Of a stretch of 64,000 bases of DNA, positions 27,896-47,152 are shown piece by piece. The stretch covers positions 95,644-159,643 of the forward strand of contig CAYWRZ010000005.1 in assembly GCA_964460845.1 (NCBI GenBank). The letters are read 5' to 3'. Position numbers and translations under genes: made by a program. Below the pieces are notes generated by a model, which saw only the letters and a program-made list of their open reading frames with translations, was not told the origin of the DNA and did not search any database. The DNA comes from an uncultured Weeksellaceae bacterium. GTDB taxonomy: Bacteria > Bacteroidota > Bacteroidia > Flavobacteriales_D > UBA2798. Each line of letters begins with the position of its first letter. Position 1 is the stretch's first letter.

Positions 27896-27980
27896 GGAGG
27901 AATGGCAGAGTGGTCGATCGCGGCGGTCTTGAAAACCGTTAGGTGTAACAGCCTCGGGGGTTCGAATCCCTCTTCCTCCG
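27896..27980 (+). tRNA. tRNA-Ser (anticodon UGA)
   Basis: Hand fold. Acceptor GGAGGAA/TTCCTCC, anticodon stem GCGGT/ACCGT with loop CTTGAAA, long variable arm (AGGTGTAACAGCCT), T-arm GGGGG-TTCGAAT-CCCTC, discriminator G, no encoded CCA. One A-C mismatch in the short D-stem by my fold. Confidence 0.88.
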
Positions 27981-27987
27981 CAACTCA

Positions 27988-28020
27988 GAAAATCCTGACG
28001 CAAAGCGTCGGGATTTTTTG
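27988..28020. terminator. hairpin terminator after tRNA-Ser (bidirectional geometry)
   Basis: AAAATCCTGACGC-AAA-GCGTCGGGATTTTTT. A 10-11 bp stem with an A-run before it and a T-run after it. Confidence 0.6.
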
Positions 28021-28053
28021 TTTTAGACAGGTGCCAAACTTGTTTGTGCGCAT

Positions 28054-28148
28054 GTAGAAAACAAAAAATCCACCTTTGGAAGCGCCAAAGAGGATTTCCT
28101 GAGTTGAAGCCTTCCCCTCAGGGATCAGCCGCCGGAGGCGGGTAATCC
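28054..28148 (-). ncRNA. candidate small RNA, copy A (about 90 nt, own intrinsic terminator)
   Basis: Minus strand reads GGATTACCCGCCTCCGGCGGCTGATCCCTGAGGGGAAGGCTTCAACTCAGGAAATCC, then hairpin TCTTTGG-CGCTT-CCAAAGG, then GGATTTTTTGTTTT. Paralogous to copy B. Confidence 0.4.
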
Positions 28149-28199
28149 ATCCTTTTTCTAACGTTTCTTTTCGAGTGCTCCCAAATTGTGTGTACACCG

Positions 28200-28290
28200 G
28201 CAGAAAAACAAAAAACACGCTGCGCAGCAGCGGGATTTTGAAGATGCAGCCCTCCCCTTTTAGGGATCACCCGCCAAAGGCGCGTAATCC
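28200..28290 (-). ncRNA. candidate small RNA, copy B (about 90 nt, own intrinsic terminator)
   Basis: Minus strand reads GGATTACGCGCCTTTGGCGGGTGATCCCTAAAAGGGGAGGGCTGCATCTTCAAAATCC, then hairpin CGCTGC-TGC-GCAGCG, then TGTTTTTTGTTTTT. Confidence 0.4.
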
Positions 28291-28462: not shown

Positions 28463-28939
28463 ATGTATAAATTACTGAAAAAACTTCTTCAATTAAAGGT
28501 TGAACGCTTAACAGCACCACCTACTGACACATCTGTTGACCGGTTATTTAGTTGCATTAAGTCCATTGAAGAAGGCTCAAACAAAATTTCAACCTGGTCT
28601 TTAAGCACTATAGGTGGTTCTTTACTGGCAATTTTGAGTAACGAATATTCACATCCATTGACACCGAAATTGAAACTGATTTACTTACTATTTGTTTTAG
28701 GTTGGGGGTTTATTGGCATTTCATTTTATAATGGTAAAAACATCACAAGCCGGTCAATTGCTTCGGAATTAAATAAAAATGATACGGAATTATTGAAAAC
28801 AATTTTTACTGACTGCAACACATTTTATTCAAGACAACTGCGTTTTTTTAATTTAGCACTTTTGATTTTTGGTATTTGGCTATTACTGTTTCTTTTGTGG
28901 TGGGTATTTGGTGATTCAATTATTAATATTTGTAAATAA
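28463..28939 (+). CDS. hypothetical membrane protein (3-4 predicted TM segments)
   Basis: 158-aa ORF in about 30% GC DNA. Hydrophobic segments WSLSTIGGSLLAIL, LIYLLFVLGWGFIGISF, LALLIFGIWLLLFLLWWVF. Confidence 0.55.
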   Translation: MYKLLKKLLQLKVERLTAPPTDTSVDRLFSCIKSIEEGSNKISTWSLSTIGGSLLAILSNEYSHPLTPKLKLIYLLFVLGWGFIGISFYNGKNITSRSIASELNKNDTELLKTIFTDCNTFYSRQLRFFNLALLIFGIWLLLFLLWWVFGDSIINICK

Positions 28940-28950
28940 AATAACTTATT

Positions 28951-29325
28951 ATGAGTGACTGCGACTACAACAAAGACTGTTCAAAAGTGCCTATCAGAGG
29001 AAAATGTGTATCATTCTGTTTAGAGCGTATATTACGAACTGCAACAATAGAAGAAAAGCAATTAATTCTTGGACTTGATAGAACTTTGTCTTTAGCAATC
29101 CATAATGCTTATAATGAACTTAAAGACATAAATTCGTTTGAAGATTTAAGTACACAATTAACACAAGAACAAGGGCAAACCCTGTTGACTAAGTTTAAGC
29201 AAATAAATCAATATCAATTAAATTATTTTAGAAAAAATAGACAAAAAAGAGACTTTATTATCAATAAAATCAAAAACTTAGGATTAGACTCTGATGAGGA
29301 GTCTCTTTTATCAAACAACCATTAG
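28951..29325 (+). CDS. hypothetical small protein with N-terminal Cys cluster
   Basis: Starts 11 nt after the previous stop. C-x5-C-x9-C-x3-C at the N-terminus (CDYNKDCSKVPIRGKCVSFC). No family recognised. Confidence 0.5.
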   Translation: MSDCDYNKDCSKVPIRGKCVSFCLERILRTATIEEKQLILGLDRTLSLAIHNAYNELKDINSFEDLSTQLTQEQGQTLLTKFKQINQYQLNYFRKNRQKRDFIINKIKNLGLDSDEESLLSNNH

Positions 29326-29735
29326 ACAAAATACTACCACAACAAGGTATTGCCCAAAGCGGGGCTGAACAGCTTCGTATCAACAAAAGTGCAGAATTCA
29401 ACTTCTGTTCTTCTGGAACTCAATGACAGAAAAAGAAATCACCTGGATAGCAGAATGAAAGAGGCACGAACCGCTAACACGGTTTTTGTACCTGCCCGTA
29501 GGCATATAGATTAGACATAATTACCTGAAAAAAAATTATGATTGCCGATAATAATATTCAATAATTATTGATAAATTCTACTCCGGTCAGCGATAGCTGA
29601 TCGGAACCACCCGAACCTACCGAAAGCAGCCAAGCAAAAAAAACCAATCCATTACCCCCACCAAAAAAGCAAACGAAAAATTACCAGGCACAGCATTACC
29701 TTTGTTGTCGTGAATACACAATCCAAAAGATCGCT

Positions 29736-30377
29736 ATGAAACGCTCTTCAAAAGCAGCCCACATTCTGAATCAACTCAATAGCCAAACCAAGCTGGGTGA
29801 CTTACGGAAAATTGCGAAGGATATCAAAAAAGACCACGAATTAGCGATAGAATTATGGTCAAGCGGGAATTTTTTACCCAGGCAACTCGCCATCCTGATT
29901 ATGGACAACAAGCTTCTTTCGCAGGATTTGATTAATCAGCTTGACAAGGACATGCAGACTCACCCGTTGAACGAGCGAAACCAACTCATAGATTGGCTGA
30001 TGGCTAACCAGCTTGCGAAAGACAAGAAAACCATTACACTGATGGAATCGTGGAAAAACAGCCCTTCTCCACTTCAAAGACGAATTTTTTGGTATTACCA
30101 GGCTCGTTTGCGTTGGCTGGGAAAAACACCTCCTCCCAACACGGAAGAATTGTTGGCGGCCATCGAAACACAACTAGAAAGCGAAGAACCCGAAGTACAA
30201 TGGGCCATGAATTTCACCGCAGGATGGATTGGCGTTTTTGATAAAAAGTATCGGACACGCTGTATCGAAGTGGGGCAGAAAACGGGACTTTACAAAGGCA
30301 AAATGGTCTCAAAAGGCTGTACTCCCGATTATTTACCGGAGTTCATTGCGATAGAAAGTCAGAAAAGAAATTTATAA
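29736..30377 (+). CDS. DNA alkylation repair protein (AlkD-like HEAT-repeat family)
   Basis: 213 aa. LRKIAKDIKKDHELAIELWSSGNFLPRQLAILIMD and later W-rich helical repeats resemble the DNA-alkylation-repair family. Recognition by eye only. Confidence 0.6.
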   Translation: MKRSSKAAHILNQLNSQTKLGDLRKIAKDIKKDHELAIELWSSGNFLPRQLAILIMDNKLLSQDLINQLDKDMQTHPLNERNQLIDWLMANQLAKDKKTITLMESWKNSPSPLQRRIFWYYQARLRWLGKTPPPNTEELLAAIETQLESEEPEVQWAMNFTAGWIGVFDKKYRTRCIEVGQKTGLYKGKMVSKGCTPDYLPEFIAIESQKRNL

Positions 30378-30381
30378 AAGT

Positions 30382-30836
30382 GTGCGCAGGGCCACAGAAA
30401 AAAGCAAAGACGAAATAAACAGACAAGGTGCTACACCTTTTGCGCAAACGTATTTTCACGGCACAAAAGCCGACTTAAAAATAGGCGACCGGATTGAAGC
30501 TGGCTTCCACTCCAACTATGGACAAAAAACACACACAAAATATAGTTTCCTGTCGGCCACATTAGACGCTGCCATTTGGGGGCTAAACTTGCCTTGTGTG
30601 AAGGCCGGGAAAGAATTTATTTGGTAGAGCCTACAGTACCAATTGAAGATGATCCGGACCCGACAGACAAAAAGTTTCCCGGCAATCCGACAAAATCGTA
30701 TCGTTCGACAGCGTCGTTCAGAGTGGTGGGAGAAGTAACTGTGTGGCAAGCATACCCGGCAGCACAAGTGCAAGCCATGAAAGCACACCTCGAAAAACTT
30801 AAAGCACAAGGAATTAACTCCTTAAATGAGGAATAA
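30382..30836 (+). pseudogene. arr: NAD(+)--rifampin ADP-ribosyltransferase (Arr), split by a 1-nt frameshift in a G5 run
   Basis: The two ORFs (30382-30627, 30576-30836) together read YFHGTKADLKIGD...YSFLSATLDAAIWG / AKLALCEGRERIYLVEPTVPIEDDPDPTDKKFPGNPTKSYRS, which is colinear with Arr. The frames join at TGGGGG (30577-30582). Confidence 0.8.
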
Positions 30837-30883
30837 GCCAAATGAGAGTCTTTTTATACTTTCAATTCGGAAAGCCTGATAAT

Positions 30884-30915
30884 CAAAACACTTTATAATT
30901 ACTTGCAGTGTTTTG
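30884..30915 (+). terminator. possible terminator hairpin downstream of arr
   Basis: CAAAACACT-(14 nt)-AGTGTTTTG, followed within 15 nt by T-rich sequence. The loop is large, so the call is weak. Confidence 0.3.
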
Positions 30916-31001
30916 TCGGAGCGATTTTATTTTTATATATTTTTAGCATAGTTATTCGATTATCGACTTATAAGTCGTGCTAATTTTAATGTAGTAAGGC
31001 G

Positions 31002-32543
31002 ATGAAACGCCCTTTTATACTGATTTTCGGCGTATTGTGCATAGAGGCTTTCGGTCAATATCCTGTAAAGCCGCAACCTGCTACCCCTCAGGCTTCCACG
31101 TTTAGCCCTATGGGCGAAAACGGGCATTACCGTTTTACCCTTACACCCGCACGGCCTGTTCAGCCTTCTACCTCCTATGTTCCGCCGATGGGCATGACAG
31201 GAGATGCAATCAAAGAGCAGGTTAATAGAAACGCATCTCATGGCGGAATACCCATACTTCATCCTAATGCCACGCAAAAAGAAAGACAACAAGCCTCAGA
31301 AGCATACATCCGTCAGCGCATGGCCAATGACCCGATGTATCAGTATCCGAATACAGCCAACGGTTTTACTCAAACTCATTTATCCCCAAGTCAGCAGCAG
31401 ATAATAAACCTGTTGAACGAGGTTCATGCTTCGGAATCTCCCCGCCGTAGTTCAGCTTCCTATTACCAGTCTTCGGAATTTACAGCTCTTACGAAGCCTT
31501 ATACCGATGCGTTACAGGAACTTAAAATGCAGCTTGCAGGACTTCGCCCGCTTTCGGTAGCCGATGCCTATTTCGCAGTCGAAAATGCCTTTGGCAATGC
31601 CTATTTGTCGAAAAATGAGTACGACCGTACAATAGAGGAATCGGTTGTATTTATCCGGCGGTGGCTTTCACAGCATGGATATAATCTTCAGGACAACGAA
31701 GCCCTGCACATAGGCTTGCAGCGTTTCCTGAGCGATACGCTCACTATCCGGTTGCCCGCCTCGGCAGACCGACCCGGAGCTTCCACGCTTAAAACGCACT
31801 TGCCTTTCTTTTACGATTATGAAGACTATACTGGCACGAAAGATTACCGCAACTATTTTCTGACCAAATGCCTGGCTACCGGCAGCGGACAATGCAATAG
31901 CCTTCCCACCGTGTACAATGCCCTTGCCCAAAAACTGGGAGCCGTATCGTACCTTTCTTTTGCGCCCCAACATTCCCTTATTAAATACCCCGGCAAAGAC
32001 GGAAGACTGCACAACTACGAAGCTACTACCAACTGGAAAATAAGCGATAAATGGTATAGGGATAATCTTTTTGTCAAGCAGGAAGCCCTGCGTAATCACA
32101 TGTACCTCGATACGCTCAACTATACGCAGATGGTAGCTAATGCTGTTATCGACCTTGCCACAGGGTATATCCAAAAGCACGGCGCAGCCGATGGGCGTTT
32201 TGTGGACGAGTGCCTGAATCTTGCCGCACCTTATTTCCCCAAACGAAATAACATTTACCTGTATTTTGTGCGCAGCCTAAAGCTGGCTTATCTACTGGAG
32301 AGAGAACTCCATACAAATGGTATAGAAGATGTTAAAGACATTGAACGTTTTCCGCATCTGAAAAGTCTCTATGAAGCCTTGGAAGAAAACGAAAGGCTTA
32401 TTACCGGAAAGGGGTATCAGGGAATGCCCCCGGAGCTGTATAATCAAATGATGGAAGAGCACCAGTACAAGAACCGCCAGCAGTCGGCAAAGTCCATCAA
32501 CGGCAAGCAAAAAAGAAACCTGTTTATTACCCAACCCCGATAA
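31002..32543 (+). CDS. secreted transglutaminase-like (Cys-His-Asn/Asp core) protein, paralog of the N-terminal region of the next gene
   Basis: Signal peptide MKRPFILIFGVLCIEAFGQ. Core GSGQCNSLPTVYNALAQKLGAVSYLSFAPQHSLIKYPGKDGRLHNYE aligns with GQGNCFAMVSLFRILSERLGSDAFISTVPGHIYIRHADKNGIVHNVE in 32553-34748. Confidence 0.6.
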   Translation: MKRPFILIFGVLCIEAFGQYPVKPQPATPQASTFSPMGENGHYRFTLTPARPVQPSTSYVPPMGMTGDAIKEQVNRNASHGGIPILHPNATQKERQQASEAYIRQRMANDPMYQYPNTANGFTQTHLSPSQQQIINLLNEVHASESPRRSSASYYQSSEFTALTKPYTDALQELKMQLAGLRPLSVADAYFAVENAFGNAYLSKNEYDRTIEESVVFIRRWLSQHGYNLQDNEALHIGLQRFLSDTLTIRLPASADRPGASTLKTHLPFFYDYEDYTGTKDYRNYFLTKCLATGSGQCNSLPTVYNALAQKLGAVSYLSFAPQHSLIKYPGKDGRLHNYEATTNWKISDKWYRDNLFVKQEALRNHMYLDTLNYTQMVANAVIDLATGYIQKHGAADGRFVDECLNLAAPYFPKRNNIYLYFVRSLKLAYLLERELHTNGIEDVKDIERFPHLKSLYEALEENERLITGKGYQGMPPELYNQMMEEHQYKNRQQSAKSINGKQKRNLFITQPR

Positions 32544-32552
32544 TACTTCCCT

Positions 32553-34748
32553 ATGAAAACCGCAGGAATTTTAATGATTATGGTCGTAGTGTGTGGTTTC
32601 ACTCCGGTAAAGGCATCGCAAGACAGCACCGCAAAGGCAGCCTTTTATACCGCCCAACAAGCCCTTGTAGAAATGCTCGAAGGGAATAAGCCATTAAGCT
32701 ATGAAAAGGCTATTTACCATATCGAAAACGCATGGTACGGAGGCGGTATAAGCGAAGCGACCTTTACCCGTATGCTTGACTTTCACACAGAAAACGTCCG
32801 GCAGCTCATCGCTACCCGTTATGAAAAACAAAATTTCACCACCACCTTGAGAGCTACGGCAGCACAGCAACAAGAGCGTTACGAAAAGGCATTAGCTAAC
32901 TGGGCAATTTACACCTACCTGACCGATACCATCTTGTTTGTAAGCCCCGAAGGGTTAATGTTGCACCTGCCTTATACCTACTCCTACCGCGACCCGCTGG
33001 CTACTGCCGACTGGACAAATACACAAGTGATAAACTTGTTGTTAAAAGGACAGGGTAACTGCTTTGCGATGGTATCGCTGTTCAGGATTCTTTCTGAGCG
33101 ATTGGGTTCGGATGCGTTTATCTCGACCGTACCGGGGCATATCTATATCCGTCATGCCGATAAAAACGGTATTGTGCACAATGTAGAACCCTCCACCCGC
33201 TCTTTTCCCGGAACCGGAACCTTACAGGTCTTGACATACAGCAGCGATGAGGCGGTAAGAAGCGGAATTTCTATGCGCAATTTAGATACCCGACAGTCCG
33301 TAGCCCTTTGTTTGGTATATTTAGCGAAAGGTTTTGAGTACAAATTCGGAATCCGTACCGATGATTTTCTGCTTGAATGTGCCGACATTGCCTTACAGCA
33401 CGATAGCCTGAACCTGAACGCCCTGCTATTGAAAGCCGGAATACTGGAAGAACGGTTATTAGTCAGAGGTTCAAGCGTGGAGGACTTACAGCGGTACACC
33501 GACTTTAACGAATACGAAAGCCTGATACGTGAGCTACACCGCCTCCATTACCGTGAAATGCCTTTGGAAATGAAGAACCTGATTATGGCCATGCACAAAA
33601 AGGAACGGTTTCCCGGCATCGTGGAAGACAAGACACCACAGCCTTCTAAACATTTAGGAATAACCCAAGACCGCTACGTTACTCTTTCGGGCGGACTGTT
33701 TGAGGAGTTTGATTACGATAAGCCCGTAGAGCAATACGGCCGTACCCTGTTCGACAGCGAAACCAAAAAGATAAGCGGATTTCTGACCGAAACACCCCAG
33801 CTTTACAACTACTACCAGTTCGACCCGGTCGTCTTCGCCTGGTCGATTGACCCGCTGGCAGCGAAGTACCCCTATATGTCGCCGTATGCCGCCTTTGCAG
33901 GGAATCCGATTTATTACAGAGACCCCGATGGAGCTGATGTGGAAGGATTTATGGCTTTACTTAAAGCCTCCATATATGGATCAGCAATTCAAACATTAAG
34001 TGATGCAAGCGAAACTTTCAATGCTACTATTAATCACTTTGTGTCCGTAAATGGTGGAGAGAATCCCAACTCTGCTAAAACCGATGGAAAGTGGAGTAAC
34101 GTTAACATTAGTTTTGGAACATTTAACGAAACTCCCGGTTCTGACGGAAATGAATTATTGGGTCGTAATATTTTTCAAATAAAAATAAACGGGAAGTGGC
34201 AAGATATTACGTCCGTAGATGATAATGTTCTTGATGGACTGGAATCCTCAAGCGGTAATCTTAGAATTTTAATAGAATTTAATACTGCAACAGGTAGTGA
34301 TTATTTTAAAAACATAGTGGTCGGTGCACATGAAGTCGGTTTACACCTTATTGCATTAGGTCAACTGGCAAACGATGTCTTAGCAGGTGCTAAAAGTTTA
34401 CGAAACGTAAAAGATGAAATATATGCTGGAGGGGACGAAAGTAAACAAATGGCTACAAAACATCATATAGGTGTTGCAAATGGAAGCCCGGTAGCTACGG
34501 TATATAATCAAATTTTAAACGAAGTAGAAAATCATTTAAGAGCAAATCGAAGAACTTTAAATGCTAAAGGAGAAAGCTATGCAAATATCAAATTATTAGG
34601 CAACCAAATGGATAACGACCCCGGTGAGGAGTTTCAAAATTCAAAAGGAAACTATACCGCAAGGCAAGGAGTGAGAGTGGCAAGGATGGCTTCTCAAAAT
34701 CATTATAGAAGTGAAACGGGAAAATTCAAACAAATCCAAGAGAAATAA
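32553..34748 (+). CDS. polymorphic-toxin-type protein: signal peptide, transglutaminase-like scaffold, RHS-core-type DPDG junction, variable C-terminal toxin domain
   Basis: Signal peptide. Cys170/His196 TGase-like core. Junction YMSPYAAFAGNPIYYRDPDG at aa 441-460 (DPDG = nt 33921-33932). A 271-aa AT-rich C-terminal domain containing AHEVGLH. Confidence 0.7.
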   Translation: MKTAGILMIMVVVCGFTPVKASQDSTAKAAFYTAQQALVEMLEGNKPLSYEKAIYHIENAWYGGGISEATFTRMLDFHTENVRQLIATRYEKQNFTTTLRATAAQQQERYEKALANWAIYTYLTDTILFVSPEGLMLHLPYTYSYRDPLATADWTNTQVINLLLKGQGNCFAMVSLFRILSERLGSDAFISTVPGHIYIRHADKNGIVHNVEPSTRSFPGTGTLQVLTYSSDEAVRSGISMRNLDTRQSVALCLVYLAKGFEYKFGIRTDDFLLECADIALQHDSLNLNALLLKAGILEERLLVRGSSVEDLQRYTDFNEYESLIRELHRLHYREMPLEMKNLIMAMHKKERFPGIVEDKTPQPSKHLGITQDRYVTLSGGLFEEFDYDKPVEQYGRTLFDSETKKISGFLTETPQLYNYYQFDPVVFAWSIDPLAAKYPYMSPYAAFAGNPIYYRDPDGADVEGFMALLKASIYGSAIQTLSDASETFNATINHFVSVNGGENPNSAKTDGKWSNVNISFGTFNETPGSDGNELLGRNIFQIKINGKWQDITSVDDNVLDGLESSSGNLRILIEFNTATGSDYFKNIVVGAHEVGLHLIALGQLANDVLAGAKSLRNVKDEIYAGGDESKQMATKHHIGVANGSPVATVYNQILNEVENHLRANRRTLNAKGESYANIKLLGNQMDNDPGEEFQNSKGNYTARQGVRVARMASQNHYRSETGKFKQIQEK

Positions 34749-34752
34749 AATC

Positions 34753-35535
34753 ATGATTAGAATTAAAAGTTTTTATTTTCTCCTTTTAGCAATAACAGCA
34801 GTTACTCAAAGCTGCATTAGCTCTGATAAAGTTTATTATGAATACGAATACGCAATAACATACACAAAAAAAAACTACATCTCCTATACTGAGGAAAAAA
34901 TAATTGAGAAAACACACAGCGCCTTTATGGGTAAAGACACTCTGTTTTTCCTTCACGCACAAGACACAGCAAACTTTCTGATACAAGGAACTTTAGACAC
35001 AATTACCCAAGAGGTAGTACAATGGGATACCCTTTTTGATATAATACCTGAAAAAGCAAACGGCCCTTACTTACTTAACAGAGAAAAAGGAATCATCGAA
35101 TATTCTGACAGAAACCATCAAAAAAGAACGTTAAAGTGGTTCGATTACAAAGATACCGTAGATTATTATTCTATCGAAACATGTAATCTTCTGAAAGAGA
35201 ATTCTCTATGCCGGGTTTTTTATAGTGGAAAAGAAGGGATTTGTATCGTAAATAACAAAGAATACAAATGTGATATATTCATTGCATTTTGCCCACAAAG
35301 AGGGCTACACGGAAAAAACACCTTTTCATTTATCTTTTTGGACAAAAAAACAAAAATGATTTTAAGAAAAGATTTTTATGTAATGGAGGACTTATCGCTG
35401 AGATTTCACAATATGAATGAGGGAATATTTGTTCCGGACATTTCCAATTATACAGGCTCAACTTATGTAACGAACATTAAGAAAAGTGCCTTAACACCCT
35501 CAAAAGTAAAATACTGGGATGAATGCTATCCTTAG
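34753..35535 (+). CDS. putative cognate immunity lipoprotein
   Basis: The ATG lies 4 nt after the toxin stop. Signal/lipobox-like LLLAITAVTQSC. Paralogous to 35772-36596. The immunity role is inferred from position only. Confidence 0.55.
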   Translation: MIRIKSFYFLLLAITAVTQSCISSDKVYYEYEYAITYTKKNYISYTEEKIIEKTHSAFMGKDTLFFLHAQDTANFLIQGTLDTITQEVVQWDTLFDIIPEKANGPYLLNREKGIIEYSDRNHQKRTLKWFDYKDTVDYYSIETCNLLKENSLCRVFYSGKEGICIVNNKEYKCDIFIAFCPQRGLHGKNTFSFIFLDKKTKMILRKDFYVMEDLSLRFHNMNEGIFVPDISNYTGSTYVTNIKKSALTPSKVKYWDECYP

Positions 35536-35755
35536 ATGCAGGGGTACTCTCACACGTTTTCACAACACAAACCATGATTTCGGCGCTCATGGCACATTAA
35601 AACATTTTCCTGACCAAACCGGAAATACACGGATGGAAAAAGCAAAATCTAAAGGTCTGCATACTGCAAGACAGGGACTAAGAGGAGCAAGAATCGCAGA
35701 ACAAGTTGCTCATAAATTGAAAACCGGGAGTTTTACACCAGTAGATGCAAAATAA
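35519..35755 (+). pseudogene. orphan toxin C-terminal tip remnant
   Basis: Its C-terminal half SKGLHTARQGLRGARIAEQVAHKLKTGSF aligns with the last ~45 aa of the 32553-34748 protein (SKGNYTARQGVRVARMASQNHYRSETGKF). There is no upstream toxin body. Confidence 0.5.
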
Positions 35756-35771
35756 TTGATTAGATTTTAAC

Positions 35772-36596
35772 ATGAAGCACAAAACGCTTTTTATACTTAT
35801 TTCTATTGTTATTGCTTCATCATGCAGCGAGAATAAAAATTTATTCTATTATGAGTATAATTACATTACGGAATTTAGAAAACTCTCTATTCAATTCCCT
35901 GAAAATATTGATATGGATTCAGTTACAGTAGATGATGCAATAGTCAGTATTGAAACCATTATTAATCCTTCCCGTTCCGTTTTATATAAAAATAAAGACT
36001 CTATATTTATTATTAATTATAGTGATACAGTAAACTATTTAATAGCCTATACGATAGATTCCGTAACCAACGAAATAATTGAAGCAGATACTTCATTCAA
36101 TATTCATGTTGGATACTCAAAAGGGCCTTTTAAATACAATCCTTCAAATTCAACAATACAGCAAGATTCGTTAACCTTTCAATGGTTAAGTAAAACAGAT
36201 ACCCTTGAATATAAAGGACTATACGGCATTAGCGCATTTTGCAAAAAAAATCCGCACTCCCAACAAGGAAGGATATTTTTTTCCGGTCGCCGGGAAATAT
36301 TCAGAATGGGAAATGAAATTTTCAACTGTGATATTTATATTGGTTACTTCCCTCAGAAAGGAATGCACTCTGAGGCTTATTTTGAACTTTTTTTTATTGA
36401 GGTAAATTCGGGAATTATCCTTAAAAGTGAAACGTATAAAGTAAACTCGCAAAAATATACGTATAGTTTTGAGGGAATGGAATACGAGAGCTACAAAACC
36501 AGTGAGGAAAATTTCATTGGAAGAACTTACCTTAAAAGCATTACCCCAAGCGACCTCACGCCTGCAAAAGTTAGTAACTGGGAAAATTGTCCTTAA
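35772..36596 (+). CDS. second putative immunity lipoprotein (paralog of 34753-35535)
   Basis: Lipobox IVIASSC. Shared blocks YYEY.Y, CDI.I...PQ.G.H and LTP.KV..W..C with the first copy. Confidence 0.55.
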   Translation: MKHKTLFILISIVIASSCSENKNLFYYEYNYITEFRKLSIQFPENIDMDSVTVDDAIVSIETIINPSRSVLYKNKDSIFIINYSDTVNYLIAYTIDSVTNEIIEADTSFNIHVGYSKGPFKYNPSNSTIQQDSLTFQWLSKTDTLEYKGLYGISAFCKKNPHSQQGRIFFSGRREIFRMGNEIFNCDIYIGYFPQKGMHSEAYFELFFIEVNSGIILKSETYKVNSQKYTYSFEGMEYESYKTSEENFIGRTYLKSITPSDLTPAKVSNWENCP

Positions 36597-36710
36597 CGCT
36601 GTTATCCGGTTGTATGAGGTTCAGAATGTGTAATATGCTAAATATTTTTTTGTTTAAAACCAGTTAAATTTTTAGGAGGGGTTACAGTTACACTGGTCTT
36701 CTGTCTTTCG

Positions 36711-36926
36711 TCATCCTACTTGGTTTTCTGAGTATTGTCCTTTAATGTGAGCCAAGAAGAACTTTCCTACTGAATCACTTCCAATAAATTCATAATAGGT
36801 GCTTTCAGGAACGTCATAATACTGCCATATTGCACCATTTTTTTTGAATTCAATTTCAAGAGTCAAAGTATCAGAATCAAATCCAATACTTGCTATCATT
36901 GATGATTCTACATATTGTCTGTCCAT
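36711..36926 (-). CDS. stand-alone KTSC-domain protein, third gene of the SIR2-HerA operon
   Basis: 71 aa. SSMIASIGFDSDTLTLEIEFKKNGAIWQYYDVPESTYYEFIGSDSVGKFFLAHIKGQY matches the KTSC domain pattern along its full length. The start is 2 nt after the herA-like stop. Confidence 0.85.
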   Translation of the reverse strand: MDRQYVESSMIASIGFDSDTLTLEIEFKKNGAIWQYYDVPESTYYEFIGSDSVGKFFLAHIKGQYSENQVG

Positions 36927-36928
36927 AT

Positions 36929-38698
36929 TTAAAATTTTTGTTGTCTTATTCTCGTAACAACGGTTTTATAATTTTCTTCATCAGTTGGGTGTTCGTGTTG
37001 CCATTTTTCAACAAGTTTTGGGTCATCACTTGTTGGTCTTGGAACATTAAGTTTAAGTCTTACTCTTGATGGAATTTTAATTGCTTCTCCAACAATTATG
37101 GCTTCACCTGTCCGTAATGACGGAAGTAGGTCAATTAAACTGTTTAAGTTGTCGGGGGCTGAGGATTTAACTATTGATTGGTCGCCTGAATTAGTTAGTC
37201 GTAATGCAATAAAAGTTCCCACTTGAGCTAAAATAGTTTCTGAAATTTCTGATGGTCTTTGGGAAATAACTAAAGCTCCTAAACCAAACTTTCTTCCTTC
37301 TTTGAATACCCTTTCTACCGCTGCCTTTGAATAACTGTTATTGTCATTTTTGTTAAGATAGTTGTGTGCTTCTTCATAAGCCAAAAGGAGTGGTCTATTC
37401 TTACCAGTATATGGTTCATTCCGACCCCAAAACATACTATCATAAACAAATCTTGTTATCAATCCAACTGTAATATCAAGGACTTCAAAAGGAACTCCGC
37501 TTAAATCTAAGATTGAGAGTTTACTGTCGCTACCAATCCATTCATTTAAAAGATGATGTAAATCTTTATCTGAATCGGCATCTTTGAAGTCTCCTGGATT
37601 AAAAAGGAAATCAAATCTTGAATCTTTGAGCCTTGATAAAATTTTCTTCTCGTATGAGTAAAATTCTTGGTGCTGTGATTTATATGGTGGTTTGGTGTTA
37701 TCCGTTGATAGATGTGATTTAAATTTTGCTCCAATTAAATTTTCTGCCTCTCCATCATCTACTTTGATTGCAGTAGATAAAATTTGTTCATCCTTTTTAG
37801 TTGTATTAAAACTTGCATTTAACCACCAATTCATTTCATACCATAGTTTTCTCACGCTAAAAGGAATTGGTGAATCACTTGTAACAAAATTTGGATTAAC
37901 TATACCCGCTTTTAGATTGCAATTTTCCTTTTTGAGATTTGTAACTAATTCCCGAAATAAACGATAATCTGGTTTTTGGTCATCTGTTGGTTTTGCTCCT
38001 ACTAAAAAGTATGCAAGTTCGTCAAAGGACATCAACCAAAATGGAATGAATAATGGATTGGCAGGGTCATTAATTTTTAGAACTTTGGCTTCAGGGAAAG
38101 CTGAAGAATATTCTCCGTGAGGGTCAACAAGAATAATTCTTGAACCTTGATAACCACTCAAAATTGCTTTGAGAATACTAACTGTTGTATTAGACTTACC
38201 ACTACCTGTTGAACCCAAAATTGCACAATGTCTCAAAACCAATCTGTGCAAATCTGCATAAACGCTTAAATTTTCAGATGAGGAGTGTTTGCCAATTTCA
38301 ATAGAGCCTGCATCTTTTTTACCATAAATATCAAACAGGTCTTTTTCAATAACTATGTGAACTTCATCATTGATTGTTGGATAAGTCCCAATACCTTTTT
38401 CAAAATCATCTTCTCCAACTTTTTCGCCAACAAGTTGAACAGTTAAAAACCTTGAGCCAAAACTATATTTTAGAAGCGTTTCATCTGTTTTGCTTGGCGT
38501 ATTACTTACTGATGAAACAATACCGTAAATTGTAATATTGCCAATCGGTATTTTTACGAATGTTCCGATTTGTCCAATTTTATAAAGCCGACCATTGATA
38601 ATAGGAGCTGCTGATGGTATTTCGTTTGAAACTTCCACTTCAACTGTCCCAGAGTCAACCCGTATAATATGACCTAAATATGTTATCTCGGTTTTCAT
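36929..38698 (-). CDS. herA: HerA-like ATPase (DUF87/FtsK-HerA superfamily) of a SIR2-HerA defence system
   Basis: N-terminal HAS-barrel-like region, Walker A GSTGSGKSN, Walker B LLLAYEEAHNYL, LVISQRPSE motif. ATGA overlap with the upstream SIR2 gene. Confidence 0.9.
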   Translation of the reverse strand: MKTEITYLGHIIRVDSGTVEVEVSNEIPSAAPIINGRLYKIGQIGTFVKIPIGNITIYGIVSSVSNTPSKTDETLLKYSFGSRFLTVQLVGEKVGEDDFEKGIGTYPTINDEVHIVIEKDLFDIYGKKDAGSIEIGKHSSSENLSVYADLHRLVLRHCAILGSTGSGKSNTTVSILKAILSGYQGSRIILVDPHGEYSSAFPEAKVLKINDPANPLFIPFWLMSFDELAYFLVGAKPTDDQKPDYRLFRELVTNLKKENCNLKAGIVNPNFVTSDSPIPFSVRKLWYEMNWWLNASFNTTKKDEQILSTAIKVDDGEAENLIGAKFKSHLSTDNTKPPYKSQHQEFYSYEKKILSRLKDSRFDFLFNPGDFKDADSDKDLHHLLNEWIGSDSKLSILDLSGVPFEVLDITVGLITRFVYDSMFWGRNEPYTGKNRPLLLAYEEAHNYLNKNDNNSYSKAAVERVFKEGRKFGLGALVISQRPSEISETILAQVGTFIALRLTNSGDQSIVKSSAPDNLNSLIDLLPSLRTGEAIIVGEAIKIPSRVRLKLNVPRPTSDDPKLVEKWQHEHPTDEENYKTVVTRIRQQKF

Positions 38699-39888
38699 TT
38701 AGTAAGGTTTTCAATTGCTTCTCTTTTTCCTGAATTGGAAATTAAAAAGTTTACAAGTTCATTGAAGTCTCCAAGTTTGAATCTATTTGTTGTAGAATCC
38801 CAATAGGTTTCTGATTTTTCATTTGGCTTTAAATCATCCGCTAAATAATGCCACTCTCCCAGATTGCCGTTTACAATAGCCTTTGTTGGTCCAAAGACTA
38901 TGAGATTCATATATGAAGATGTTAGTTTGTGTAAATTCTCTACTTCAGCATCTTGGAAAAAGAAAACCAATGCAGTTAGTCTATTGTTTTGTCGTAAACA
39001 GTTGAATATTATTTCATTGATATGTTGGTCGGAGAATGAATATCCTGAAAAAATGAAAAGAAGTTCTCCACTGAGCAAATAATTTTTCAGTCTGTCGAAA
39101 TATGCTATGAAGGGTTGTTTCTTTGATGAATCGTATTTTTCTTTTGAAGGATAAATTACTAATTCATTCTTTTCATCTTCTATTTTTTCAATTTTTCCTT
39201 GTCGTATGATTTTTTGTGATTTTGTTGCTGGGTCAATTTTCCAAAACCAACTTAATGAGCCGTGAATTTTCCAAAGTCTAATCCAATTTTGAGTCAGGTC
39301 ATTTTTGGAGACAAATTGGTCAATACTTTCCTGCCAAAAGAATGGCTCAAATGAGCCAACAAATCCGTCAAAGTAGGGGATTTGGCTAGCTTCTAAAGAT
39401 TTTTCAATTATTAGGTCATAATTTGTTGTGAATATTTCTTTTGAAAAATCTCTATTTAGCATACTTAGCCAAGCAAAGAATTTTTTTGTTTGACTGATAT
39501 CAGCTAATGATTCTTTTGCGGCAATGATTTGATAAATTATTTTACATATTTCTATATCTAAGGTTTTTGCAGATTCTCCTGTGATTCCTTGATAACTTTT
39601 AGTATTGACTTCTCCAGTAATCTCTCTAATTCTTCTAATGTGATTTAGGATGTCTTCAATATTGACATTTCGATCCGTTATGATGGTTTTTAAGTCTTCC
39701 TTAATAGCTATAAAGTTGGCTTTATTCTCGTCTTTTAATTCCTCTTCAATCCCTATTGTCAATTGTTCAACATTCGGAATTTTTAATGCACAAGAAGTTC
39801 CTGCACCAAAAAAGAATCCTATGTTTTTTGAATAGGATAAATGTGTTTTCAGCTCTCTTACTTCTCTTATTAAGTTTATTTTTTCCAT
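38695..39888 (-). CDS. SIR2-family (SIR2_2-type) NAD-binding/NADase protein of a SIR2-HerA defence system
   Basis: FFFGAGTSCALKIP (GAGxS), TTNYDLIIE, KIHGS (catalytic His context), about 400 aa. Confidence 0.88.
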   Translation of the reverse strand: MEKINLIREVRELKTHLSYSKNIGFFFGAGTSCALKIPNVEQLTIGIEEELKDENKANFIAIKEDLKTIITDRNVNIEDILNHIRRIREITGEVNTKSYQGITGESAKTLDIEICKIIYQIIAAKESLADISQTKKFFAWLSMLNRDFSKEIFTTNYDLIIEKSLEASQIPYFDGFVGSFEPFFWQESIDQFVSKNDLTQNWIRLWKIHGSLSWFWKIDPATKSQKIIRQGKIEKIEDEKNELVIYPSKEKYDSSKKQPFIAYFDRLKNYLLSGELLFIFSGYSFSDQHINEIIFNCLRQNNRLTALVFFFQDAEVENLHKLTSSYMNLIVFGPTKAIVNGNLGEWHYLADDLKPNEKSETYWDSTTNRFKLGDFNELVNFLISNSGKREAIENLTK

Positions 39889-40007
39889 CTCATTCGATTT
39901 GTCAATCTGGTCTCAGGTCGTTCTTTAGGCTTGCACCCAATATTTTTTAGACTTAGCGTTCGGGAAGATTTCGGAGCACAAAGCTTCAATTTATACTAAT
40001 GACATTA

Positions 40008-40041
40008 GAAACAAAAAGCTCCGTCCCTAAAGCTTTCGGGA
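40008..40041 (-). terminator. possible intrinsic terminator of the 40088-40960 gene
   Basis: Minus strand shows near-palindrome TCCCGAAAGCTTTAGGGA followed by CGGAGCTTTTTGTTT. The U-run is offset by 5 nt, so confidence is moderate to low. Confidence 0.35.
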
Positions 40042-40087
40042 TTGTACGTTAGCCCGCATGACGCAAAACCCGTGTTATAAGCTGCCA

Positions 40088-40960
40088 TTACAAGAATCTT
40101 TTTGCTAATTGTTTTAGAATTCTGATTCCATGAATAGTAAAAGTCCCATCTTCATTTATTATTCTGAGATTAAGCATTCCTATAAGTTCTTGTTTGCTTA
40201 ATTCTTCTAAATTAATTCTGAATTTTCTACTTAAAACTGAATTCGGGTATTTCATTATTGCTTCAAAAGGCATATTCTGCTTTCTGATCAAATCAATAAG
40301 TCGCCTTATAATGCTTTCTGGAATTTCTTCTAAAATAATGTCGTCATTTTCACTTTCATGGTATAAACGATTTCTTAAAAAATTTAATTCTCGATTTTGT
40401 TTCGAAATCTCTACTTCTTTTTCCTTTAACTGTTTTCGTATTTGCTCTTTTTCATGTTGTTCCAATTGAGCCTTTTCAATCAATGAGTTTAAAATTTCGT
40501 TTCTTTCTTGAATTTCTTGCTTTAACTTTATTTTTTCCTTTTCTATTTCTTCTTTTGTCTCTTTAATGTTTTTGTCATTGAACCCATTATCGAACTTATT
40601 AACTAAACCACTATATCCTTCGTCCAAATGCCTCAGTCTTTCTCCAAAACCAGCTTCTATTCTTCCAAGAATTTCTGATATTTCTTTAGTAAATTTATAT
40701 GTGTTATCATAAAACAAGTTACTTGTATCGGTAGCTTTAAAATAAAATGCTACTGATAATGCAATTGCAAAAAGTGAAAGTAAAAGAGCAAGTAGTGCAT
40801 TGAAATCGAACTTTGAAAAATCAAATGTCCAATCTGATACTGCAAGCTTGTATATTATCAAAGCAACTATTAGAATTCCTGAAATAAGTTTAAACCAGTC
40901 AAATAATGTTGCTTTTGACGATTCCTGCTTTGATTTTTTATTTTTTTCTTCTTTTTCCAT
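40088..40960 (-). CDS. hypothetical protein: K-rich N-terminus, 2 TM helices, long coiled coil, about 90-aa C-terminal domain
   Basis: 290 aa in about 28% GC DNA. TM segments LISGILIVALIIYKLAV and LLALLLSLFAIALSVAFYF. E/K heptad region aa 130-200. Confidence 0.6.
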   Translation of the reverse strand: MEKEEKNKKSKQESSKATLFDWFKLISGILIVALIIYKLAVSDWTFDFSKFDFNALLALLLSLFAIALSVAFYFKATDTSNLFYDNTYKFTKEISEILGRIEAGFGERLRHLDEGYSGLVNKFDNGFNDKNIKETKEEIEKEKIKLKQEIQERNEILNSLIEKAQLEQHEKEQIRKQLKEKEVEISKQNRELNFLRNRLYHESENDDIILEEIPESIIRRLIDLIRKQNMPFEAIMKYPNSVLSRKFRINLEELSKQELIGMLNLRIINEDGTFTIHGIRILKQLAKRFL

Positions 40961-41354
40961 GTCTGAGGTCTAATATGGTTGCTTATAACTCTTAAATATG
41001 CGCAAAATGATTGCGTATATCCTTTCAATTTCAGAAAATAAATGCAATAAAGATACTTCACACAAGAATAATTACTTTTTTATTACGTAAAAAATCGAAA
41101 GAACTATTTTATCAAAGGAGCTTGGTTTTTCACTATTTCGCCTCACACCTCCCCTTTCACAACCTAAATATCTGAAAAATATTCATTTACAAGCCATTCC
41201 ACCTCTTCAAAACCCTCCCAGGAAGGGTTAGAAACCTGTCTCCTACTCTCCCACAGCAACCGAGCACCTACCCCATGCCTCAACATATTTCCGGAATATT
41301 TACGTAATTTTAGGGTCTCTATTTCAACTGTTCTACAGACCAAACGACAACGCT

Positions 41355-42740
41355 ATGAAAAAAGCGCTTTTATTGCTTACCACCCTATTTATGGCCAGCT
41401 TCACTTTCGGACAGGAATCAAAAGCTGAATTATTAGACAGCTTATTTACCGCACTGCACCATAAAAAAATGTTTAACGGTAACGTGCTCATCGCAGAAAA
41501 AGGAACGGTAATTTTTGAAAAAAGCTACGGCTTAGCCGATGAAGAAAAAAAACGGCCGCTCAATGCCCAAACTATTTTTGAACTGGCCTCCGTGTCCAAA
41601 CAATTTACCGCAATGGGAATTGTGCTGCTGCAAAAGCAGGGAAAGCTGAACTACGACGATCCCCTTTCGAAGTACATCCCCGAGCTGGATTTTTACGGTC
41701 CTATCAGCATCCGGAACTTGCTGATCCATACGAGCGGACTCCCCGACTACATGGAGCTTCTTGATGCGCATTGGGATAAAACAAGATTTGCTACCAACCA
41801 GGATATTGTCAACGAATTTGTAAAACACAAGCCCGAAGCGGCTTTCCAGGCGGGCGAAAAATTTGAATACAGCAACACCGGCTATGCCTTACTGGGCCTG
41901 ATTATCGAAAAAGTTTCAAAAAAATCGTTCGGAGATTTTCTGGCCGCTGCCATTTTTAAGCCGCTGAACATGAAAAACACGTTGGTGTACAGAAGCCGTT
42001 ACGCACCAAAAAAAATAAAAAACTATGCGCAAGGCTATGTAAATGACGGCCTGGGAAATAAAGTGCTTCCCAACAGTTTCGGAAAAGGATTTTACAGCTA
42101 TTACCTCGACGGAATCGTGGGCGACGGAATGGTCAACTCCACTACCGAAGATCTGCTCAAATGGGACCGTGCGCTTTACACCGACAAGCTGGTCAATACC
42201 GAAGATAAATCACTTATTTTCAACTCTGTCCGAACCAATAACGGCAAAGAAACCCGCTACGGATTCGGGTGGGTCATCGACCAAACGGAGAAATACGGGA
42301 AAATCGTGAACCACGGAGGAGGCTGGGCCGGTTATGTCACCTTTATCGAACGACACCTCGACAACGACAAAACCATTATTATTCTTCAGAACAATTCGCA
42401 CGAGCTCACCGCTTTACCCGTAAAAGACGCCAGAAAAATACTGTACGATGAACCTTTGAGTAAAGAAAATCTTAAGGCCGTTACCCTGAATGACGAAGCG
42501 CTCGACAAGTACGTGGGCACCTACACAAACGAAGAAATTCAGCTTACCATTTACATCGTGAAAAAAGACAATGTACTAATGGCTCAAGCCGAAGGGCAAA
42601 ACGCCTTTCCGTTGGATGCTTTTGAAAATCACACTTTTAAATTCGAACCTGCGCAGATTAAGATGATTTTTCATCCCGAAGCACAACGCATGGATTTCTT
42701 TCAGGACGACTTCAGTTTTACGTTCCGGAAAATCGAATAA
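41355..42740 (+). CDS. serine hydrolase, beta-lactamase (class C/PBP4*-like) family
   Basis: Signal peptide, SxxK motif (SVSKQF), YxN motif (YSNTGY), HGG near the C-terminal part of the catalytic domain. Confidence 0.85.
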   Translation: MKKALLLLTTLFMASFTFGQESKAELLDSLFTALHHKKMFNGNVLIAEKGTVIFEKSYGLADEEKKRPLNAQTIFELASVSKQFTAMGIVLLQKQGKLNYDDPLSKYIPELDFYGPISIRNLLIHTSGLPDYMELLDAHWDKTRFATNQDIVNEFVKHKPEAAFQAGEKFEYSNTGYALLGLIIEKVSKKSFGDFLAAAIFKPLNMKNTLVYRSRYAPKKIKNYAQGYVNDGLGNKVLPNSFGKGFYSYYLDGIVGDGMVNSTTEDLLKWDRALYTDKLVNTEDKSLIFNSVRTNNGKETRYGFGWVIDQTEKYGKIVNHGGGWAGYVTFIERHLDNDKTIIILQNNSHELTALPVKDARKILYDEPLSKENLKAVTLNDEALDKYVGTYTNEEIQLTIYIVKKDNVLMAQAEGQNAFPLDAFENHTFKFEPAQIKMIFHPEAQRMDFFQDDFSFTFRKIE

Positions 42741-42920
42741 AATTGTACTGTGTCCGTGCCTAAATCAGGTGTAAGCGGCACACATAAATTTAAAATCCGG
42801 AGCAAAAGTTTGCCTCTCAGGCTGTAATCAACTTATTCTGCAGCTATCGATGGCCAATACCCACTCTGATTTACAGCAAATTTCATCTCTTTCAGCCCAA
42901 TAATTGGAAAGATTTATTGT

Positions 42921-45656: not shown

Positions 45657-46144
45657 AGCTTCCCGATTTGAGGCTTCTAAAGTGTCCTATAACGCATTTA
45701 TATATAGGTAATAAAACTACAAAATATCCTGAAAACGGATTGGATTAGGATATAGCAGAAAAATTGAGAATGGCTAAAATAGCCCGTTATACTTTAAAAT
45801 CAACTGGTTTTCCGCTTATCAATCGCCAGCGAACGGAAGGCCACTTCGAGCAGAAAGAAAAAGAGCTTATCGCCAGGCCATACTTTTTTCCCATTCCAAA
45901 ATTGTATCCATACAGGTCGTATAAAAACGCCTGCTTCTCTTCCTGCCTTTTACAAAAACATGGAAATCAGCTAAAACAAGACCTTAAAACCTTTTGCTTA
46001 TCAGATTGAAATTGAAATATGCTATCCCATCTTATGTGTAAAAGCGATACCTTTTTTGGAAAAAGCACAATTACCCTTACCTTCCTGTATCGATTTCTGT
46101 GACAAAAGAGAAGCGTACATTTCCACTCTTCTTCCCATTTAATA

Positions 46145-47152
46145 ATGAAATACATCTCTATTCTCTTGCCGTTGCTGTGGCTCACCGCCTGCAAAACACC
46201 GGAGCTTGCCATAGTCAAAGTGAACGAGCAGTTCGGCTGTATCGACAAAAAAGGAAATATGAGTATCGCTCCGGTATGGGATTATATTCTTCAGGACGAC
46301 AAGCAACTGCTGGTGCAAAAAGACAGCCTATACGGATTTATTGACCGGAAAGGGCGGGTGCTCATTCCAGCTCAATATACGGATGCGTACGGGTTCTATG
46401 AAGGACTTGCCGCCGTAAGCAACGGAGAAAAATACGGTTTTATTAACCTGCAAGGCGACACCGTCATTCCCTTTATTTACGACGATATTTTCGGGGGCTT
46501 TAGCTACGGACTCTGCCATGTGCTGCGCAACGACAGTTGTGGCTATATCAACCGGAAGGGAGAGCTGCACATCCCCTTACAGTATGCGGTATGTTATCCC
46601 TTTACGGAATCTTATGCCCGGGTACAAGCATTCGAAGGAGAAAGTGTGCTGTTAGACAAAAGCGGAAAAATATACCGATATCACGAAATAAATAAGCGCG
46701 ATAAAGCCACTATAGAACCGCCCTTAGATCCTTATCCGGGAAGCTTTGCTACGCCTGCCGGACAAGGCCGTGTAAACGCCAGGGGCGATACGCTTATTCC
46801 CCCAATCTATAAAGCCACTGGAAACCTTTCGGACGGCATGTACATTGTGCAGGATCAGCAAGGGAAATGGGGGGCTTATACCGAAAAAGGAGCGTTGATT
46901 ATCGCTCCGCAATTTGATAAGATGGCACATTTTCAGGAAGGTTTGGCTCAGGTTAAACAAAATGGTAAATGGGGCTACGTAAGTAAAAAAGGTGAGCTCC
47001 GCATAGCACCTGTTTTTGACTACGCCGGTCCTTTTAAAAAAGGAATAGCCTACGCAGAATACGAAGGCAAGGCAGGATTCATCAACAAGAAGGGGAAGTT
47101 TATCATTGCGCCTACCTTCCAGCCTAATGATTGGAAAAGCAACTTTGAATAA
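46145..47152 (+). CDS. WG-repeat (KWG) lipoprotein
   Basis: Lipobox LLWLTAC. Repeated units of the type G(K)WGY(V/I)..KG...I.P.F/Y. Confidence 0.8.
   Translation: MKYISILLPLLWLTACKTPELAIVKVNEQFGCIDKKGNMSIAPVWDYILQDDKQLLVQKDSLYGFIDRKGRVLIPAQYTDAYGFYEGLAAVSNGEKYGFINLQGDTVIPFIYDDIFGGFSYGLCHVLRNDSCGYINRKGELHIPLQYAVCYPFTESYARVQAFEGESVLLDKSGKIYRYHEINKRDKATIEPPLDPYPGSFATPAGQGRVNARGDTLIPPIYKATGNLSDGMYIVQDQQGKWGAYTEKGALIIAPQFDKMAHFQEGLAQVKQNGKWGYVSKKGELRIAPVFDYAGPFKKGIAYAEYEGKAGFINKKGKFIIAPTFQPNDWKSNFE

Follow-up and report, generated by a model that had tools for sequence, protein, structure and literature searches.

The 64,000-nt window analysed here (positions 95,644 to 159,643 of contig CAYWRZ010000005.1, from an uncultured Weeksellaceae bacterium) carries two tandem units of ~90 nt on its minus strand, placed between a serine transfer RNA (tRNA-Ser) gene and an accessory region. 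An earlier note, made from the letters of this DNA, had described them as independently terminated small RNA (sRNA) genes, or RNA-element remnants, at an island junction. Each unit consists of a 5' hairpin (P1), a G-rich box (GGGGA.GGCU.CA), and a hairpin of its own, unrelated sequence followed by a U-tract. In the window units, P1 takes the form GGAUUAC..CGCC-NNN-GGCG..UGAUCC and the box that of C-linker-GGGGA.GGCU.CA. The features of the units and of the adjoining tRNA-Ser flank are as follows, in coordinates of the window.

27896..27981, plus strand: tRNA-Ser(UGA) gene (ARAGORN; Rfam tRNA model, 51.9 bits)
27981..27996: outer inverted-repeat arm A' (tRNA trailer), pairing with 28091-28106 (I3; 16 nt, 94% complementary)
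27986..28024, plus strand: tRNA-Ser terminator, an A-tract and the hairpin CCTGACGC-AAA-GCGTCGGG, then ATTTTTTGTTTT (inverted repeat I4)
28011..28071: inner inverted repeat, arms 28011-28034 and 28048-28071 (I2; 24 nt, 83% complementary)
28057..28148, minus strand: unit A (covariance model, 41.6 bits, E = 1e-11)
28148-28122, minus strand: P1 hairpin of unit A, GGAUUAC-CCGCC-UCC-GGCGG-C-UGAUCC
28121-28105, minus strand: G-rich box of unit A, CUGAGGGGAAGGCUUCA
28104-28092, minus strand: outer arm A of unit A
28091-28073, minus strand: terminator stem of unit A, with its U-tract at 28069-28057
28204..28290, minus strand: unit B (covariance model, 33.1 bits, E = 6.5e-9)
28290-28264, minus strand: P1 hairpin of unit B
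28263-28245, minus strand: box of unit B, CUAAAAGGGGAGGGCUGCA, a divergent form
28232-28218, minus strand: terminator stem of unit B, with its U-tract at 28216-28204

Coordinates, alignment, pattern count and covariance model agree that these are two paralogous minus-strand units, as had been proposed. Units A and B share 79% mean column identity in the alignment, and the 64 kb contain exactly two occurrences of the 29-nt pattern GGATTACNCGCCNNNGGCGGNTGATCCCT, with 0.00 expected. A covariance model built from relatives and run with filters off found no third copy in the window, and with 41.6 and 33.1 bits the two units rank among the most divergent full-length members of the family described below. 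Folding predicts P1 in both copies (z-score −3.2 for A, only −1.4 for B). Likewise, a consensus scan called minus-strand terminators with T-runs for both units, confirming the claim of terminator hairpins whose stem sequences are unrelated, and both window stems have the G+C-rich hairpin and subsequent U-run of an intrinsic terminator. The closing GGATT/AATCC pairing suggested for both copies did not hold up, since the folds pair GGAUUAC with UGAUCC within P1 instead and the AAAUCC segment is unconserved in relatives.

Unit A begins 123 nt downstream of the tRNA-Ser gene (27896-27981), and the whole of the spacer between them is a nested inverted repeat. This had been missed previously, as had the presence of the unit terminators' U-tract ATTTTTTGTTTT in the plus-strand tRNA-Ser terminator (28013-28024), which has the same cassette design as both unit terminators. 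The apex of the inner repeat is the palindrome CAAACAAGTTTG (28046-28035, minus strand), found at the same position in related loci (L015, L021, L024, L029, L038, L039, L045 and L047). The window tRNA-Ser ends in ...CCTCC-G-CAA, with CCA not encoded, unlike nearly all related loci, where it is; the CAA after the discriminator G (27979-27983) already belongs to the outer inverted repeat, which starts there.

A repeat family linked to tRNA-Ser

Searching GTDB species genomes with the pattern GGATTA-N3-17-TGATCCC-N4-12-GGCTTCAAC recovered 39 loci, ~34 of them from Bacteroidota and the remainder consistent with chance, and the same pattern recovered 58 metagenome loci. Carriers within Bacteroidota comprise Pedobacter, Sphingobacterium, Parapedobacter, Bacteroidales, Rikenellaceae, Lentimicrobiaceae, Saprospiraceae, Cyclobacteriaceae and Flavobacteriales, with the cultured strains P. 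antarcticus ATCC 51969, P. cryoconitis DSM 14825, S. alkalisoli Y3L14 and S. olei HAL-9 of the first two genera among them. Model R1, a covariance model for P1 and the box derived from alignment A3, gave 102 and 109 matches, weak ones included, in the genome and metagenome locus sets, and the pattern and covariance-model searches together yield ~190 matches in ~85 Bacteroidota loci, many of them arranged in tandem. Tandem arrays reach five consecutive copies in L046 and L053, and L057 holds eight copies in two arrays. The window units are members of an unannotated, Bacteroidota-wide repeat family linked to tRNA-Ser. The earlier note had not recognised the family, and the units are indeed absent from Rfam: only tRNA reaches the gathering score in Rfam 15 for the window and six related loci, and at E <= 10 nothing credible overlaps the units within 27950-28450. 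A literature search for a published tRNA-Ser-linked repeat or sRNA in Bacteroidetes found nothing relevant.

A convergent tRNA-Ser gene (anticodon TGA, GCT, GGA or CGA), on the strand opposite the units, is present at ~29 of the 34 genome loci and at most metagenome loci; nearly every locus that extends far enough has one. The gap from box to tRNA end measures 109-148 nt in 55 distinct modules. Its outer stem runs from the base after GGCUUCA to the base before the reverse complement of CCA, and across 55 distinct relatives it has a mean of 11.04 Watson-Crick pairs out of 12, compared to 5.11 ± 1.98 when arms of different loci are combined. The sequences of this stem differ completely between lineages; within every lineage, the 11-18 nt after GGCUUCA are identical to the tRNA trailer after CCA. 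A second spacer stem reaches ~25 perfect bp in some Bacteroidales, its apex often being CAAACAAGTTTG or CAAGCAAGCTTG, and two unrelated side hairpins complete the module, to which the window layout is identical in plan. A comparison with miniature inverted-repeat transposable elements (MITEs) or foldback elements gives a mixed picture: the termini are inverted (ACC...GGT, 11-18 bp), no target duplication is visible, and in the loci examined copies lie only at tRNA-Ser. At the spacer apex of L109, from a complete genome (2166-2215), there is a sense T-arm-like sequence, GGGTTCGAATCCC, within a 10-bp stem (GCGTTCAGTC / GACTGAACGC); this fragment is a second, different tRNA-like piece on the motif strand.

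Read on the tRNA strand, P1 becomes GGGATCA-tip-TAATCCC, in which AATCCC matches the T-loop/T-stem 3' side of the tRNA. A copy of the tRNA-Ser 3' end (acceptor 3' strand plus CCA) directly abuts the hairpin in 20 of 120 distinct units against 0.29 expected, as judged by matches with <=1 mismatch to its reverse complement, TGGCGGAG. Exact repeats of the local tRNA end are found in L011, L030, L013 and L033; the direct repeats in L011, L013 and L033 begin at AATCCC, and the tRNA-end copies of L013 fade with distance from the tRNA (100%, 95% and 90% identity). Linkage to tRNA-Ser, together with fusion to the tRNA 3' end in a sixth of cases, argues for a DNA recombination junction. When L030 was compared with L011, two trailer-terminator copies of L030 were seen to differ by a compensatory pair (CCCAACTTTGCAGTTGGG vs CCCAGCTTTGCAGCTGGG), so the hairpin of the displaced copy is apparently still maintained.

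At three loci (L096, L098 and L060) the tRNA is split, and the tRNA 3' remnant, the spacer and the unit are retained with the tRNA 5' part gone. The break falls at the T-loop/T-stem boundary or within a few bases of it, where foreign DNA begins, and in L096 and L098 the foreign side bears a T-stem-5'-like GGGG plus 6 nt. Foreign DNA is bounded by repeats in L013, L009, L075/L080 and L060. The cassettes between units include a 1.7-kb three-gene helix-turn-helix (HTH) cassette flanked by two 90-nt repeats (L013), an alpha/beta hydrolase (L009), AraC plus beta-lactamase/DUF3471 (L075) and a YhcG nuclease (L060); others encode short-chain dehydrogenase, and cassette genes point in both directions. 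The related arrays of L029 and L046 combine a constant P1 and box with three unrelated 3' parts in different order, and the tRNA-proximal module of L029 is truncated and internal in L046. Across the metagenome set (L048-L105), the commonest families near units are short-chain dehydrogenases (6 members) and AraC-type regulators (5-6). A derivation of the box from the tRNA-Ser(UGA) variable arm, suggested by a near match by eye in L029 and L046, is unproven, as the local alignment scores 19.0 against 18.4 ± 2.4 for shuffled sequences.

Units are also retained at the syntenic locus shared with the window, where a gene for a GWxTD protein neighbours tRNA-Ser (L006, L007 and L109; ~50% protein identity). 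L007 (47% GWxTD identity) has the same tRNA-Ser synteny and at least three tandem units, which have the same core (GGGATTAT-TTC-ATGATCCC-TTTAGGGAGGAGGCTTCAAC) and a short hairpin tip; the contig of L006 ends within the box, and L109 has divergent units with a GCCTTGCA box. Two tandem L007 units 261 bp long (4140-4241 and 4401-4502) each hold an identical called open reading frame (ORF) of 33 aa, MIFDWIEAKNTGITLVTASIFAEEPSEKKQIIG, between box and terminator, which is putative. In the more distant relatives L108 (1494-2405) and L110 (1561-2475), which lack tRNA-Ser there, the GWxTD gene is immediately preceded by a XerC/XerD-like tyrosine recombinase gene, probably a housekeeping one, and no other recombinase was seen at the syntenic spot.

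Structure, covariation and strand signals

Six pairs of P1 were set by the search pattern and are hence uninformative for covariation. The next pair occurs in all four Watson-Crick types (GC 21, CG 19, UA 12, AU 4, other 1), as it does in the independent metagenome set (GC 38, CG 33, AU 7, UA 2, other 1), and is the only P1 pair that varies much. A U.G pair of P1 is invariant (57/57 and 81/82), which on the other strand would turn into A.C, a mismatch. The tip varies between a 3-nt loop and ~20 nt, the box sequence is kept across Sphingobacteriia, Bacteroidales, Flavobacteriales, Cytophagales and Saprospiraceae, and many members have a hairpin of unrelated sequence after the box. The four-way pair in two sets and the unrelated hairpins after the box bear out the claim that structure is conserved here and sequence is not, and the units belong to a real structured non-coding family, as the earlier note had proposed.

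Signals that could assign the units to one strand are mixed. A U-tract follows the hairpin on the motif strand in 16 of 46 distinct units, on the opposite strand in 4, and on neither strand in 28. Mismatches in the outer spacer stem are balanced (G.U 12, A.C 8), which points to a strand-symmetric feature, either a DNA repeat or a two-way terminator. No usable strand bias was obtained from the G.U/A.C comparison, neither in the outer stem (12 vs 8) nor in the hairpins (13 vs 25), where the A.C count is inflated by spurious low-quality stems and clean hairpins, by our reading, are about even. A hairpin enclosing the box, formed by the linker with the downstream segment, was likewise discarded, with a longest Watson-Crick run of 3.43 against 3.33 in cross-unit controls, and the CUGAG/CUCAG stem of unit A is incidental. 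An 11-nt loop of type UCGCUNCGCUC is recurrent (L009, L010, L012, L013, L020, L022, L034, L035 and L040), its sites being the P1 tip (Sphingobacteriia, L013) and the hairpin after the box.

Recombination junction, RNA gene or cassette site

Islands classically land in tRNA genes, and their junctions are as a rule specific to the element and accompanied by an integrase. The reading that we favour, tentatively and at a little short of an even chance, is that the units are junctions of a site-specific insertion into the tRNA-Ser T-loop, with P1 as a surrogate T-arm, combined with terminators and served by a recombinase in trans. The linkage to tRNA-Ser, the junction position, the duplicated tRNA ends, the split tRNAs, the inter-unit cassettes and the stem covariation on which it builds are observed directly; from them we infer a tyrosine-type recombinase acting in trans, with P1 as core site and the box as a putative accessory protein-binding site. 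A unit would thus be an attachment-site (attR)-like sequence of small, Bacteroidota-wide modules without an integrase gene. On the tRNA strand it would consist of the G-rich box (GTTGAAGCC.CCCC), a short linker and the surrogate T-arm GGGATCA-variable tip-TAATCCC, to which fresh copies would add the tRNA's own T-stem 3' strand, acceptor 3' strand and CCA. Incoming DNA would cross over at the T-loop/T-stem boundary, bringing a new tRNA 3' end and then a trailer and terminator, and the older 3' end with its junction would be displaced outward. Repeated rounds may produce tandem arrays with accessory cassettes trapped between units, and the spacer from tRNA to first unit would act as two convergent terminators shielding the tRNA from neighbouring transcription. 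Units A and B of the window would be two old junctions, their acceptor remnants decayed, between tRNA-Ser and the accessory region. Transcription of the units is possible, though not their defining property. Of the earlier wording, the 'RNA-element remnants at an island junction' come closer to this junction reading than the 'sRNA genes' do.

There is precedent for such a target: tRNA-Ser 3' ends are where two mobilizable transposons of Bacteroides, NBU2 and MTnBf8, integrate (PMC6692515; PMC13597742). The units resemble their attachment junctions in targeting the 3' part of tRNA-Ser, in the tRNA-end copy at the junction, in the foreign DNA between repeats and in tandem accumulation by the tRNA. 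They differ in that neither an integrase nor a mobilisation gene was seen in the flanked DNA or close to it, that the 'elements' of most units are only a nested inverted repeat of ~110-150 bp, that a phylum-wide hairpin and G-rich box replace element-specific sequence, and that the units are without matches in phage, plasmid or viral collections.

Several results weigh against a junction of this kind. No tyrosine or serine recombinase is found in the tables for ~250 ORFs around ~85 loci (Pfam scans), where for three large batches the tables give the 25 most frequent families, so a single recombinase match could be hidden; two DDE 'rve' transposases were the only such enzymes in these tables. 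The Pfam-scanned ORFs of the window include no integrase, and the covariance model places no unit on the island's far side; the tRNA end GAATCCCTCTTCCTCCG has no second copy within 3 mismatches, and neither unit retains a recognisable acceptor remnant. The search pattern had zero matches in viral contigs, and the consensus unit had none in plasmids and phage genomes. Most 'elements' are the spacer alone (~110-150 bp), a circle of ~175 bp is too small to be a plausible substrate for recombination, and the movement of cargo-less modules is left unaccounted for. The tRNA-proximal slot is nearly always cargo-less, which simple serial insertion does not predict, and a P1 tip of varying length does not resemble the core site of a tyrosine recombinase, whose overlap is fixed at 6-8 bp. 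Moreover, the box conserved across orders and the invariant U.G, kept at a syntenic locus of ~50% identity, could reflect selection on a minus-strand RNA.

In the main rival reading, the units would be true sRNA genes on the minus strand, tandemly duplicated, whose ~90-nt RNA has a 5' hairpin followed by a G-rich seed in single-stranded form (GGGGAGGCUUCAAC) and by its own terminator; the tRNA-Ser link would stem from an origin in, or travel with, the tRNA-Ser 3' flank. Tandemly duplicated sRNA genes are well known in bacteria, e.g., PrrF1/PrrF2 and OmrA/OmrB, which the units resemble in their ~90-nt size and, for the window copies, in having their own terminator, a 5' hairpin and an apparently single-stranded conserved stretch. 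The canonical minus-strand terminators of both window units, the excess of U-tracts on the motif strand (16 vs 4), the U.G that would become A.C on the opposite strand, the P1 pair covarying through four Watson-Crick types, the box kept from Sphingobacteriia to Saprospiraceae, and the persistence of units at the GWxTD/tRNA-Ser locus (L006, L007, L109 and the window) all suit an sRNA. Nevertheless, we consider it unlikely, if still a serious contender. Of 124 units, just one has the −7 promoter motif of Bacteroidota (TAnnTTTG) in front of it; a U-tract is missing from both strands in 28 of 46 distinct units; in many arrays the next unit is too close to leave room for a promoter; and G.U is not enriched in hairpins or long stems. 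On these counts the claim of independently terminated small RNA genes is not supported. In the window, a scan found no sigma-70-type site adjoining the units, and only a weak candidate, TTTG-N19-ACAATTTG (28212-28182), was found by eye. Folding does not set unit B apart from shuffled sequence (z = −1.4), and pairing of the linker with the downstream segment around the box is no better than controls. Unlike PrrF1/PrrF2 and OmrA/OmrB, the units have no promoter motif, mostly lack a U-tract, are obligately linked to tRNA-Ser and are fused to tRNA 3' ends; the sRNA view leaves this linkage (to four isoacceptors), the fused 3' ends and the split tRNAs unexplained.

The mosaic arrays invite a comparison with integrons, i.e., cassette capture at tRNA-Ser with P1 as a site folded in single strand, the T-arm as primary site and a recombinase encoded elsewhere. 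In the arrays, a conserved site is indeed joined to a variable segment that may or may not carry genes, and the cassettes contain no recombinase gene, as in integron cassette arrays; the same module types are ordered differently in the related arrays L029 and L046. P1, with its constant stem, fixed T.G mismatch, one covarying pair and very variable tip length, likewise recalls the structured attC site, in which a conserved stem with a fixed mismatch is combined with a terminal part that varies. We regard this as improbable, as no recombinase is conserved beside the arrays, cassette genes lie in both orientations, and nothing demonstrates single-strand folding or cassette excision. The R''/R' core sites (RYYYAAC / GTTRRRY), and with them the R/L box consensus, are absent by eye; unlike integrons, the arrays have no intI or attI beside them, are tRNA-anchored, and include many gene-less units. 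Very improbable is a guide RNA, which would have P1 and box as scaffold, a 3' guide of ~12-16 nt matching the site after the tRNA-Ser CCA, and an effector elsewhere. It would account for the 11-18 nt after GGCUUCA that equal the tRNA trailer in each lineage and are unrelated between lineages. Bacteroidetes dCas12f-sigmaE systems do use tandem single guide RNAs of 85-105 nt with 3' guides (PMC13472631), so that phylum, size class, tandem arrangement and the constant 5' and variable 3' parts are shared. However, the complementarity extends into the second long stem, up to 25 perfect bp, which makes the 'guide' one arm of a longer palindrome and not half of a guide-target pair, and the conserved part is only ~48 nt. 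The family tables of the loci list no Cas12f, TnpB or IscB-like effector gene, whereas the published guides lie directly downstream of dcas12f, are directed at promoters of susCD or of regulators, and are not linked to a tRNA (PMC13472631). Least credible of all is that the units are unconstrained, degenerate duplicated junction DNA: the decayed acceptor remnants of the window and the divergence of unit B (33.1 bits) would fit, but ~190 matches in many Bacteroidota orders, with ~30 invariant positions and a covarying pair, contradict it, as neutral intergenic DNA would diverge more.

A bolder version of these ideas, which we think quite unlikely, is a phylum-wide system without its own integrase that uses tRNA-Ser as a docking point, where a folded hairpin with its constant stem, one fixed T.G mismatch and variable tip replaces the T-arm, hairpin and box form the recombination site, and a recombinase encoded elsewhere captures, stacks and reorders small cassettes in an integron-like manner not described for Bacteroidota; RNA from the same units might take part in it. 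Whichever mechanism applies, the tRNA-Ser flank in several Bacteroidota orders carries one and the same signature of ~48 nt, made up of hairpin and box. This signature would help annotators to place the true boundaries of variable regions, such as the defence/accessory region of the window, would account for assembly breaks at the units, and points to a recombinase or RNA partner expected to co-occur with them. If the units are RNAs, they form a new, widespread Bacteroidota RNA family missing from Rfam.

Host neighbourhood and accessory region

The housekeeping neighbours encode the GWxTD protein, a glycosyltransferase, a methyltransferase and FtsH; their closest homologues are annotated as Bacteroidota, the nearest relatives having only ~50% identity. 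Public assemblies of the same organism end at or just beyond tRNA-Ser, and metagenome/Logan contigs often stop at tRNA-Ser or within a unit (L001-L003, L006 and many of L048-L105), which suggests that repeated or variable DNA, i.e., repeats or strain variation, lies at the units. The region beyond the units, the 'island' of the earlier note, was delimited by its GC profile and Pfam scans.

28463..49000 (far boundary approximate): accessory region, partly of low GC content
36929-39888, minus strand: HerA-like helicase gene (DUF87/HerA_C, 589 aa) next to a gene for a SIR2_2-domain protein (397 aa)
41355-42740: beta-lactamase/DUF3471 gene
42921-45656: eCIS-core protein gene (911 aa)
46145-47152: WG-repeat protein gene

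Apart from the genes listed, the region carries small unknown ORFs and genes for DNA-alkylation-repair-like, transglutaminase-like, cupin and GNAT proteins. The SIR2 and HerA pairing is typical of SIR2-HerA anti-phage systems and sits where the GC content of the window is lowest (33-36%). Several of the families listed recur, as cargo or as neighbours, at other loci with tRNA-Ser and units, namely beta-lactamase/DUF3471 in L075 and L080, eCIS_core in L109 and WG_beta_rep in L096.

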